DNA from: an uncultured bacterium
GTDB taxonomy: Bacteria; Chlamydiota; Chlamydiia; Chlamydiales; SM23-39
Assembly: GCA_963716985.1 (NCBI GenBank)
Contig: OY970323.1
Coordinates: 576,001-640,000, forward strand
Direction: 5' to 3'
DNA length: 64,000 bases
Shown here: positions 25,642 to 29,536 of the stretch, piece by piece
Layout of the letters: every line of letters begins with the position of its first letter
Position numbering within the stretch: position 1 is the first letter of the stretch
Made by a program: the position numbers and the translations under genes
The notes under the pieces: model-generated
Databases searched by the model: none
What the model saw: the letters and a program-made list of their open reading frames with translations, nothing else
Told to the model about the DNA's origin: nothing

Positions 25642-26224
25642 GAAATGCGCTTTACTTCTTTTGCCTTTGATCGCTTGAAAATTTTTTTCAAAGATTGCTC
25701 ATCGACGCGCTAACGAAGCTATCGAGCATGCTTCTAGCGTGAGTTTATTTTAAAACTTTCAAAAATTGAACCTAACGATCTTGTGATGAATTGGATGGAG
25801 CAAAAACTAATGGTATACACCAACACTTTCTATTTTGAGCGGCTTCAGGTGCACTTTTGACAAGTTTAAAGTCTTAAAAAGCTCTTGTTGTCGATTGATG
25901 CATTTTGTTTCCAATCTCAACCTCCAAAGGATGTAAGAGACTTGTTTTCAAAATTCCCCTGTTTGAATTTTTTCACCAGCAGCTTTTCCTATCGGTATTT
26001 ATGTTTACGGAAAAATTGCGGAAATTTTTTTTTTGAAAGGCTAGCTTTTTGGCAATATTATTGAATCCGTTTCGAATTCAGTGGCCATAGAATCTTTTTG
26101 ATCAGGGCCTTTATCTCGACATGAGATAATTGCGCGCAAAGAGGGTTGCTCCTTTAAAACGGAGTAGCTATAGCTCTCCAATGTAACCGCGACCCATTTA
26201 AGGGTCAAAAACAAGGAGCAACCC

Positions 26225-27262
26225 ATGAAGTATTTTGTAGGTTTAGACGTTTCTATGAAAAACACATCTATCTGCATTGTAGACACAGAGGGAAAAATTG
26301 TCTACGAAACAACCGCGAGTACCGACCCGCATATTTTGGCAGATACAATTGAGAAAACGGGTTTCAAAAGTGAACTCGTAGGTTTCGAAAGCGGCTCTCT
26401 CAGTCATTACTTATTGCAAGGATTTCGAGAACGAGCTTTGAGTGCAGTTTGCATGGATGCAAGAAAAATGAGTGCCATTCTTTCTGTTCGTGTAAACAAG
26501 ACTGATAAGAATGATGCAAGGGGAATCGCCGATGCGCTCAGAACAGGAACGTTTTCTCGAGTACATGAAAAGCCACAGGAAGCTATCGATAGAGGCGCTA
26601 TTCTTTCTATGAGGCGATGTTTGGTGAGCCAACGTACTGATATCAAAAATCATATCCGAGGAATTTTGAAAACATACGGTATCCGTCTTGGTTCTGTTGG
26701 TCCTGCAAAATTCACAGAAACAGTAAAGCAACGCATTCAGCAGATAGATCCTTTGGTACAAAAGATAATGACAGGGTCGCTTGAAATTTTCGATCTACTC
26801 ACAAAACAGCTTTCTCGAATAGACCAAGAACTCTTGCAATTGGCCCGTGCAGATAACGAAGTGAAGCTCCTGATGACAGCTCATGGCGTAGGGCCAATTA
26901 TAGCACTGACTTATAAAGCTGAAATTCATGACGCCCATCGATTTTCCAATTCTCGTGCTGTCGGCGCATATCTTGGGATGACTCCGACACAATATTCTTC
27001 TGGAGAAACAAGTAAGCAAGGAAGAATCTCGAGATGCGGTTCCAGCGAGCTTCGATCACTGCTAACCGAAGCTGGGCTTGTGGTTCTTACGAGAAGCAAA
27101 AAATGGAGCAAGCTCAAGGCATGGGGGCTTAAAATCATGAGAAAAAAAGGTATTAAAAAAGCATCCTTGGCTGTTGGGCGAAAATTAGCAGTTATCATGC
27201 ATCGAATGTTGATAGAGAAAAAAGAATTTATATGGGGAGAACCGCCCAGTAAAGCAGCGTAA
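26225..27262 (+). CDS. IS110-family DEDD recombinase/transposase
   Basis: VGLDVS, GFESG and KTDKNDA (DEDD); GVGP and AYLGMTPTQYSSG (catalytic Ser region); AVGRKLAVIMH. Confidence 0.96.
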   Translation: MKYFVGLDVSMKNTSICIVDTEGKIVYETTASTDPHILADTIEKTGFKSELVGFESGSLSHYLLQGFRERALSAVCMDARKMSAILSVRVNKTDKNDARGIADALRTGTFSRVHEKPQEAIDRGAILSMRRCLVSQRTDIKNHIRGILKTYGIRLGSVGPAKFTETVKQRIQQIDPLVQKIMTGSLEIFDLLTKQLSRIDQELLQLARADNEVKLLMTAHGVGPIIALTYKAEIHDAHRFSNSRAVGAYLGMTPTQYSSGETSKQGRISRCGSSELRSLLTEAGLVVLTRSKKWSKLKAWGLKIMRKKGIKKASLAVGRKLAVIMHRMLIEKKEFIWGEPPSKAA

Positions 27263-27339
27263 ACTGTTCTTCACTTGAGCAATATTGGTGGATCGCATTG
27301 GAGCGGTCGAGATAGAGAGTAAAAATCATGAGTCAATAT

Positions 27340-27500
27340 ACAGGAACACCGAAGAAGTGGGCAAATACGTTGCAAAGTTGGCACATAGATGCCGTTCTCG
27401 ACATTGTATTGTCCATTTCATTCGGATTTCATGGTGGGGCGAGGAGAGAAAATGTACTCCTCAAAAAAAGACCCCGGAGAGAACGGTGGATTCTTCCTGT
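27340..27500 (+). ncRNA. Putative bridge/seek RNA of the IS110 element (boundaries approximate)
   Basis: Internal-loop hairpin with ttgcaaagt (27370-27378) and ttctcgac (27395-27402) matching the target; second loop with atttcatg (27426-27433) and agagaac (27478-27484) matching the donor junction. Confidence 0.75.
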
Positions 27501-27844
27501 TGTTTGGACAAAAATGAAAACTTTTTATCCCGGCGTCTGTGCTCGTTTTTTATCCGGTCCCCAAGGCTTCGCTCACAAGTGAGGAACCGGAAAAAAAACT
27601 CCGCTAGCCGCCTTGAAGGGAAAGAACATTAAATAAGACCTTGAAAGTGTGTGATTTAAGCCTGCTTTTGAGCAAAGGATTATAAAATGACATAAGAGCA
27701 CTCTTGCGCGCAATTAGAGAACTTTGTACATTTTTCGATCTGATAGCCCAAAGTCATTTGCTTCAATCTGTAAAATAAAAAGTTGATAGAGAGCGCCTCT
27801 TCGCGCATACTATTTGGTTCACTAAAACAAAATGGTAGGCTCTC

Positions 27845-29197
27845 ATGGACTCTCTATCGTCAAACATTTTAGCAGTACTCATCCCTTTTTCAGTACTTTT
27901 TTCAAATCCTTCTTGGAAAAAAGCTCTGACCTTATTACTTGGCACGCTTTTATGCACTGGCAAGAGAACCGTGTGCGCGGCTCTGCGCGCAATGGGTCTT
28001 GAGCATCAGGCGGGTTTTTCAAAGTACCATCACCTTTTAAACCGGGCGGAATGGTCGTCACTCAAGGCAGCGAAAATCCTATTCTTTATGTTGCTTATCT
28101 TTGTCTCCGATCAGCATCCTTTGGTTCTGCTCATTGACGAGACATTGGAGCGCAGGCGTGGCAAGAAGATAAAAGCAAAGGGCTATTATCGAGATGCGGT
28201 TCGATCGTCACAGTCTCGAGTGGTCAAAGCCATGGGTTTGAAGTGGCAGGTTATGGCGCTCTCTGTGAAATTGCCGTTTATGTCGAGAGCACTTGCATTG
28301 CCTTTTTTGAGTGCACTGGAGCCTTCTAAAAAATGTGATGAAGCGAAGAAACGTCGGCACAAAACCTCATTAAAATGGGCGAGTCAGATGGTCTTACAGG
28401 TGCGTCGATGGGTAGGTAAGGCGCGATCACTAATTCTTGTTGGCGATGGAGGATATGCTGCGGGACAGTTGGCTCTGAACTGTATCTGTTCTGGGGTGAC
28501 TCTTGTTTCGCGACTGAAAATGAATGCAGCCCTGTTCGATTTCCCGGCCAAAAAACGTCCCGGTCAAAGGGGACGTACAGCACAGAAGGGCGTCAAATTG
28601 CAAAATTTTAAACAGATGCTATCTCTGAAGGGATTGCCCTGGAAAGAAATGGAAGTAGTCGGTTACGGCGGAGAGAAACGGGTAGCTCGCGTGCTGTCTA
28701 ACACATGTATGTGGGGAGCCGATGGAGTGACTCCTATTCCCATCCGATGGACTTTGGTGGTGGATCCTACAGGAAAACTTGATCCTCTACCTCTTATGAG
28801 CACAGATCCACTCATGACGGCAGAACGTATGATAGAATTATTTATCGATCGCTGGGGACTTGAGGTCACATTCGAGGAAACACGTGAACATCTTGGCGTA
28901 GAGACCCAGCGGCAATGGTCGGATCGAGCAATAGCCCGATCGACTCCCATACTGATGGGGCTATATAGTTGTGTATGCCTAATGGCAAATCGATTGGGAC
29001 AGGTAAAGTTGCTGAAAGTAGAGGCAACTGCTTGGCACCAAAAAGAACAAGTCACATTTTCCGATATGTTGAGGGCTGTGCGCATGGTAATATGGAGGGA
29101 TAATTTAATTTCCGGGAAGACTAAAATCACCCCTTCCGTGGAAAATATTACTCCGGAAATGGTGGATTGGATGGATGATCCTAAAAACGGCAGTTGA
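27845..29197 (+). CDS. IS701-like DDE transposase, C-terminus altered by a MITE
   Basis: LIDETLERRRGKKI...RDAVRSS, VGDGGYA and RWGLEVTFEE motifs; original end DDIVRRVLQAA* (TGA 29402-29404) lies beyond the MITE. Confidence 0.85.
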   Translation: MDSLSSNILAVLIPFSVLFSNPSWKKALTLLLGTLLCTGKRTVCAALRAMGLEHQAGFSKYHHLLNRAEWSSLKAAKILFFMLLIFVSDQHPLVLLIDETLERRRGKKIKAKGYYRDAVRSSQSRVVKAMGLKWQVMALSVKLPFMSRALALPFLSALEPSKKCDEAKKRRHKTSLKWASQMVLQVRRWVGKARSLILVGDGGYAAGQLALNCICSGVTLVSRLKMNAALFDFPAKKRPGQRGRTAQKGVKLQNFKQMLSLKGLPWKEMEVVGYGGEKRVARVLSNTCMWGADGVTPIPIRWTLVVDPTGKLDPLPLMSTDPLMTAERMIELFIDRWGLEVTFEETREHLGVETQRQWSDRAIARSTPILMGLYSCVCLMANRLGQVKLLKVEATAWHQKEQVTFSDMLRAVRMVIWRDNLISGKTKITPSVENITPEMVDWMDDPKNGS

Positions 29198-29369
29198 ACC
29201 GCTCCGCATGACCTGAAAATTGTAAATTTCTCTCTCAGAAATAAATTCTATCTTGAACTTTCACGCCCACCCAATAGGTGAGTGGATAAATTTGAGCAAT
29301 AACATTGATTTTTAGAGGAGAATCGCGAAAGTTTTGATTGTGCGGAGCGGTTCAACTGCCGTTTTTAGG
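29180..29369. mobile_element. 190-bp MITE
   Basis: Perfect 29-bp TIR cctaaaaacggcagttgaaccgctccgca; 5-bp direct repeat atgat (29175-29179 / 29370-29374); no internal ORF. Confidence 0.9.
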
Positions 29370-29536
29370 ATGATATAGTAAGGCGAGTGCTTCAGGCGGC
29401 CTGAGCTAAGCCGCTAAAAGTTGCAAAGTCGAGTTTATAATTTAATTTAAAAATGGAGGTATTTTATGCTTCAAATTCCTGGATATAGAGATCCTCTACT
29501 AGTGCTCTGTCATAGTTAAAATTTAGGATTATAAGT

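Follow-up and report, generated by a model that had tools for sequence, protein, structure and literature searches.

What brings an insertion sequence (IS) of the IS110 family to rest six bases inside the terminal repeat of an IS701-family element, and what does its arrival mean for the element that receives it? The question is raised by a locus in the genome of an uncultured chlamydia-like bacterium (contig OY970323.1), a single contig of 2,067,739 bases labeled G000. We analyzed a 64-kb stretch of it, here called the window; coordinates are those of the window unless G000 is stated, and loci labeled L are matches in other genomes. An earlier note on the window had described the nest and proposed that the IS110 element could act as a reversible off-switch or as a hyperparasite of IS701. 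We consider it most probable (about 0.85) that a guide RNA directs the element into IS701 ends, that the insertion is in practice one-way, and that it brings no control over the IS701 family.

An IS110-family element interrupts the left terminal repeat of an IS701-family element

An intact IS110-family element of 1602 bp (26121..27722, + strand; the AC core is assigned to the right end only) interrupts the left terminal repeat of an IS701-family IS at a distance of 6 bp from its tip. The segment outside the insertion, CTCGAC (26115..26120, + strand), ends in the AC core and forms the left half of the IS110 target. The remaining part of the IS701-family element follows at 27723..29433 (+ strand) and closes with an uninterrupted right terminal repeat (29415..29433, - strand), which provides the best guide match described below. 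The IS701 target duplication TTTAT flanks the whole nest at 26110..26114 and 29434..29438 (unstranded). AC is found on both sides of the IS110 element, as expected when insertion takes place at a short core and produces no true target duplication.

The boundary is fixed by the other IS701 ends of the genome. The earlier note had called for a count of interrupted and free ends; 16 left and 14 right ends were found, and 29 of these 30 are uninterrupted, leaving the nested one as the single interrupted end. All 29 uninterrupted ends share identical first ten bases. CTCGAC-TTTG starts each of the 15 uninterrupted left ends, the sixteenth being the interrupted one, and CTCGAC starts all 14 right ends. 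When positions 26121-27722 were removed in silico, the restored end matched the uninterrupted end at 22011 in 18 of 19 bases, as the earlier note had claimed. That comparison site belongs to a separate, truncated left-end remnant of IS701 (22011..22263, + strand; 89% identical). The complementarity of left and right ends that the note had also stated is complete over the outermost ten bases (10/10) and imperfect beyond them (11/13 and 15/19 bases from the tip).

The nest had further been regarded as proven by its outer duplication. TTTAT is present at both flanks, and a 5-bp duplication (apparently 6 bp in three cases) flanks 8 of 13 paired IS701 copies, the nested copy included; among the others, one shows a 4/5 duplication match and four show no duplication. 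However, the duplication alone is no proof of the nest: its sequence is AT-rich, and TTTAT is also found just after the right end of a different IS701 copy (G000:1834295). The free IS701 ends are the stronger proof of the boundary. IS701 ends without the CTCGAC prefix and duplications of other lengths, which according to the note would speak against the nest, were looked for, and neither search overturned it.

The inserted element carries a DEDD recombinase and a long downstream non-coding region

The inserted element encodes a 345-aa DEDD recombinase in an open frame (26225..27262, + strand) that matches NF033542 with 252 bits (cut-off 140) and both PF01548 and PF02371 above their cut-offs. 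Residues D8, E55, D94, and D97 are present, as is an SSG motif at 258-260. The gene is flanked by non-coding regions of 104 bp on the left and 460 bp on the right, and the element has perfect subterminal inverted repeats of 13 bp (left, 26127..26139, + strand; right, 27704..27716, - strand). It is the only full copy in the genome, where four remnants are found elsewhere.

Judged by these features, the element belongs to the IS110 family and has an IS1111-like organization: it shares with IS1111 the subterminal repeats of 11-13 bp, the long downstream non-coding region, a transposase of 330-350 aa, and a top-strand guide that comes first. We assign it to the IS110 family only and not to IS1111, because 12 bp separate the subterminal repeats in the predicted circle, compared with the 10 or 9 bp expected from the terminal extensions. 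Inspection by eye of the predicted circle junction gave a -35 box with 3/6 matches, a 17-bp spacer, and a -10 box with 5/6 matches. Promoter prediction gave no candidate site at the right junction created by the insertion, and a hybrid promoter reading into the IS701 gene is unsupported.

Palindromes of 28 bp that correspond to two head-to-head copies of the right end of this element were observed at several loci (L209, L210, L218, L226, L230, and L231; G034, G088, G116, and G071). The rest of the element is not nearby in the stretches examined. The palindromes are possibly products of donor-donor recombination or a mini-element.

The predicted guide RNA spells the IS701 end

The 460-bp downstream region contains a scaffold that is conserved in relatives with 71-77% identical protein, and is predicted to encode a bridge RNA or seekRNA (27345..27495, + strand; limits approximate) with a target stem-loop followed by a donor stem-loop. 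The consensus fold of five sequences consists of a long stem with an internal loop and a second stem-loop, and its support is modest (5 of 43 pairs changed on both sides). Two variable segments lie in and beside the first loop of the conserved stem, the top-strand match first; the available text of PMC11187229 describes the same order for IS1111 seekRNAs. Guide positions were set from the conserved scaffold in relatives and were not chosen for fit. The predicted top-strand target guide with the core (27369..27378, + strand) is the exact reverse complement of bases 5-14 of the IS701 right end, its last base being invariant scaffold. The predicted bottom-strand target guide (27395..27402, + strand) comprises two outer bases and the outer 6 bp of the IS701 end. 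Two segments are likely donor guides: one (27478..27484, + strand) equals the last 7 bases of the element's right end and is invariant in 6/6 aligned relatives, and the other (27427..27433, + strand), conserved and located in a predicted loop, would pair with the element's own left end by way of G-U pairs. Handshake-type pairings viewed by eye gave no clear direction and were not used as evidence.

We scanned the genome with the 16-mer predicted from the guides. Each of the 10 sites at 0-1 mismatch is an IS701 right end. The remaining 4 right ends appear at 2 mismatches together with 4 other sites, one of which is a diverged IS701 end, placing 14/14 right ends within 2 mismatches. The control used a 15-mer lacking the invariant last base. 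At 0-1 mismatch, the element's own guide found 11 sites, the guides of 7 relatives found 0, 0, 0, 2, 0, 0, and 0, and 40 shuffled sequences gave a mean of 0.15 and a maximum of 1. Between elements, guides agreed with the observed left flanks at 36/42 bases (7 elements; reached by 1 of 5040 permutations) and with the right flanks at 27/30 bases (5 elements; 1 of 120 permutations), figures that overstate independence since kin share bases. L083, identical to L001, was omitted from the left-flank test, its left flank being the reverse complement of its own RNA gene; L097, L133, and L083 have too little right flank for the right-hand test, and L152, L153, and L055 have no downstream region and were unusable for guide reading. 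In relatives, the right guide matches well only over its first 4-6 bases.

The element's own guide, as predicted, spells the IS701 end and would explain the insertion site, and both IS701 ends are probably acceptable to it. Specific targeting of the terminal repeat, which the earlier note had suggested by analogy with IS4321 in Tn21 repeats, is borne out by these guide segments. The label of hyperparasite holds in part: "parasite of IS701 ends" fairly describes the landing site, but no sign of control over the IS701 family was seen. The left junctions of two remnants, at G000:1181530 and G000:1985097, also follow CTCGAC, and their two outer bases vary as at IS701 ends; the latter remnant has an apparent internal deletion. 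Contigs from 4 of 19 listed sequencing runs were compared as well; no joint that skips the IS110 element appeared among them, but they barely cover its left flank and are thus uninformative on excision. One contig end of run X4 joins a flank that is empty and without CTCGAC in the present genome (G000:1944172) to the stretch from 26115 on. Visible as a loose end alone, this junction has the pattern expected of a new IS701 copy carrying IS110 in its end.

Several points weigh against guide-directed landing in IS701 ends. The sole intact insertion is in a left end, which has 4 mismatches to the 16-mer; the number falls to 2 when the final two positions, where relatives match poorly, are left out. 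None of the 14 better-matching right ends is occupied. Neither remnant retains its right side, which leaves 4 informative bases for the target of each. The X4 junction, read incompletely from a single contig end, may be an assembly chimera. Finally, the guide could have been set on something else, since 15 further sites contain the 10-bp target core and 9 of these lie within another multicopy element.

These points lead to the alternative that the guide is tuned to another repeat, or to IS701 relatives of an earlier host, and that the left-end insertion is a near-cognate or half-match event. Beyond the imperfect match of the occupied site, the presence of only one full IS110 copy, and the nine internal sites with the 10-bp core, it gains from half-match insertion as reported in the available portion of a preprint. 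The right end is also almost unchanged in IS701 relatives of 91% and 72% identity, and the guide could thus be older than the element's presence in this host; no IS110 insertion was found at the readable ends of the IS701 relatives L205 and L206, the left end of L205 not having been found. Nevertheless, the internal look-alike sites have 3 mismatches to the 16-mer compared with 0-2 for the right ends, and the fixed flank of the look-alike repeat is absent from both remnant junctions and from the X4 junction. Even if the guide had been set on IS701 in an earlier host, IS701 ends would be its target. We therefore regard a guide tuned elsewhere as unlikely and retain landing directed to IS701 ends.

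The other multicopy element measures at least about 1.2 kb (G000:566073-567233, with 8 more copies elsewhere). Its internal site shares ten bases with the IS701 end, and none was seen filled.

Relatives of the element are widely retargeted

The search for IS110 relatives retained 26 loci out of 143 pattern matches. The closest relatives of the element are in records of Simkaniaceae, Rhabdochlamydiaceae, and Parachlamydia, and its host is accordingly a probable environmental chlamydia. L131 interrupts the right end of an IS5-family element (NF033579) at 6 bp from the tip, and the empty end, together with an identical protein, was found in G062. L083 shares the first 62 bases of L131, and the target predicted from the L083 guide has 31 one-mismatch sites in G062, compared with 0 for the control. 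Of these, 30 were inspected; most are close to the end of a contig and resemble the termini of multicopy elements. The L083 guide would thereby be linked to the L131/G062 target, with guide and target on different contigs.

Inverted ends with an empty form were seen at 2 of the 26 loci, L131 and L035. L103 and L147 adjoin IS5 transposase fragments, and L148 has a similar flank that is too short. L041 is in a 34-bp hairpin and L104 in an open frame; 7/26 loci lie in a repeat of one Parachlamydia bin that resembles repetitive extragenic palindromic (REP) sequences, and 12/26 are without an assigned target (L069 may not be a member). CTCGAC precedes the element at none of the 26 family loci elsewhere, and the IS701 guide was seen only in this organism. 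The lineage retargets widely, and IS ends are one target class among several.

This raises the broader proposal that a chlamydial IS110 lineage repeatedly reprograms its guide onto the ends of expanding DDE IS and so brakes IS bursts in intracellular bacteria. Retargeting between IS701 and IS5 ends, 6 bp from the tip in both, is supported here. Braking by grounded copies has so far found no support, and the targets of other relatives are REP-like repeats, hairpins, or a gene. We consider the proposal as a whole doubtful.

Two candidates were rejected. L104 had been considered as an IS701 right end entered at its second AC, but the site falls within an open frame, and its surroundings gave no transposase match. 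L152 and L153 had appeared to be both occupied ends of one transposon; the locus is a fold-back assembly artifact whose 3.4-kb middle is its own reverse complement.

Three further observations concern these relatives. The seven loci in the Parachlamydia bin (L036, L047, L051, L054, L074, L089, and L092) are left ends of one relative, and each follows a similar 45-bp intergenic repeat, the REP-like target, beside unrelated genes. L035:455-2502 spans a 2-kb unit that has inverted ends of 24 bp, one of them holding the IS110 relative, and contains a frame of 637 aa; the frame matched no Pfam or NCBIfam family. In L001/L083, the left flank, which makes up the first 46 bases, is the reverse complement of the relative's own guide-RNA gene, reflecting either insertion into the RNA gene of another copy or an assembly artifact.

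The IS701 host element and its neighbors

The host element encodes a 450-aa IS701-family DDE transposase (27845..29197, + strand) that matches NF049999 with 297 bits (cut-off 170) and PF13546; the older model NF033540 gave 53 bits, below its cut-off of 150. Free IS701 copies are 1522 bp long, and 11 full copies carry intact 454-aa genes. In the nested copy, the last 10 residues are replaced by 6 read from a miniature inverted-repeat transposable element (MITE) of 190 bp (29180..29369, unstranded), which has inverted ends of about 29 bp and its own duplication, ATGAT, at 29175-29179 and 29370-29374. IS701 proper duplicates 4 bp of its target and the ISAba11 group 5 bp; the duplication observed for the present family is 5 bp.

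The genome holds 14 paired units of the 190-bp MITE. In contigs of 3 of the 4 runs the MITE is skipped, and one X1 contig runs from a MITE-free IS701 gene end into the right flank, which is unique in the genome. This one contig weakly suggests that the MITE entered an IS701 copy already in place. An autonomous partner for the 190-bp MITE was not identified. A 3.1-kb stretch at G000:16679-19798 lies between ends of this MITE, has a matching 5-bp duplication, and is possibly a MITE-bounded composite; inside it, at G000:19220-19348, is a short IS110-like fragment.

A second MITE, palindromic, 102 bp long, and with CTAG ends, is located at 29499-29600, 66 bp to the right of the IS701 end. It has 29 full-length matches in the genome and is likewise skipped by contigs of 3 of the 4 runs. 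An insertion of 2.8 kb, which has inverted ends as well as a duplication, divides another IS701 copy (G000:504797-500502). A leucine-rich-repeat protein (20695-21960, - strand) adjoins the IS701 remnant, and a low-complexity frame rich in Gly, Ala, and Val lies to the right of the nest (29537-30508, + strand) without a Pfam match.

Discussion

DDE transposases usually need the outermost terminal bases for cleavage. With the AC kept, only the four outermost bases distinguish the inner IS701 end of the nested copy from a normal one, and because these are among the bases usually needed, the interrupted copy is likely immobilized. The earlier note went further and proposed that precise excision of IS110 would restore the terminal repeat; as a reversible off-switch, the element would excise regularly and so toggle IS701 mobility. 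Recombination at the AC core would restore the IS701 end exactly; in the available text of the respective papers, scarless excision is described (PMC11208160) and post-excision junctions of IS621 were obtained by PCR at all three native loci (PMC13626964). However, the same source gives excision of IS621 as much less efficient than insertion, the empty site went undetected for the IS1111-type ISEc11 in the portion of PMC11187229 available, and the accessible parts of two preprints report copy-out that leaves the donor intact. In the present genome, 1/30 IS701 ends carries the insertion, and transposase can come from 11 intact copies. The MITE in this IS701 gene means that excision would not restore a normal element. 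We consider a reversible off-switch improbable. A chance insertion, or CTCGAC as the IS110 element's own left end, finds some room in the 814 occurrences of CTCGAC on both strands of the genome, but it is refuted by the free IS701 ends, all of which start with CTCGAC (15/15 left, 14/14 right), by a guide match that extends beyond CTCGAC, and by the flanks of the relatives, and retains a negligible probability.

The IS701-family element inserted first and duplicated TTTAT. The IS110 element then entered the left terminal repeat after base 6, at the shared AC core and without a duplication, as the free ends show. Under guide-directed landing, the site would be chosen by the predicted bridge RNA or seekRNA from the downstream non-coding region, whose guides spell the IS701 repeat, fit the right end best, and would accept the near-identical left end. 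By analogy with the relatives studied, a circle would form, its junction would create a promoter, and the recombinase and RNA would bring the circle into the next end that is free. As landing sites, IS701 ends would be harmless, multicopy, and self-renewing, the IS701 copy entered would probably be grounded, and the insertion would in practice be one-way.

At this locus the guide of a natural element is legible in the DNA and can be paired with the transposon end that it fits, and a single complete genome holds both occupied and unoccupied sites; the list of IS110 targets is extended by IS701 ends. Relatives that are 71-77% identical and share one RNA scaffold with different guides should be useful for defining guide length and mismatch tolerance in bridge recombinases with a downstream RNA. 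If occupied copies are grounded, the arrangement bears on the control of IS number in host-restricted bacteria, although the low occupancy argues against a strong effect here.

Targeting of transposon and IS ends by the IS110 family is already known; the IS701 target is the part that our searches did not return. Muller et al. in 2001 reportedly found that IS1383 inserts into the inverted repeats of IS1384 in Pseudomonas putida H. In both cases the specific target of an IS110-family element is provided by the inverted repeats of a second, simple IS; the present case differs in the IS701-family end, IS1384 being a member of the IS5 family, in the chlamydia-like genome, and in a guide read directly from the sequence. 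Partridge and Hall are said to have described, in 2003, IS4321 and IS5075 in the terminal repeats of Tn21-family transposons. These elements likewise have subterminal inverted repeats and insert at a fixed base in the terminal repeat of a DDE element, whereas the host here is a 1.5-kb IS and not a Tn3-family transposon, and occupancy is low (1/30 ends).

An IS701-end target was not found in the literature searched, in which the word "IS701" is absent from the main text of PMC11208160 and of preprint 2026.08.14.744561; the supplements of PMC11208160 and PMC11187229, ISfinder, or TnPedia may list one. Within the available text of PMC11187229, ISEc21 targets a site inside IS3 transposase genes. 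With IS621 and ISCro4, as far as presented in the consulted part of PMC11208160 and in PDB 8wt6 and 9t56, the element shares a DEDD recombinase with a serine domain, a 2-bp core, and a target loop followed by a donor loop; it differs in its distant sequence (E about 4e-7, C-terminal part only), in an RNA encoded at the other end of the element, and in a reversed guide order. ISEc11 and ISXne4 with their seekRNAs, in the portion of PMC11187229 that describes them, resemble it in 13-bp subterminal repeats, a long downstream non-coding region, a 345-aa transposase, a top-strand match that comes before the bottom-strand match, and natural reprogramming between relatives of about 70-77% identity. 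They differ from it in having 7+3 or 6+3 bp between the subterminal repeats, compared with 12 bp here, and in their target.

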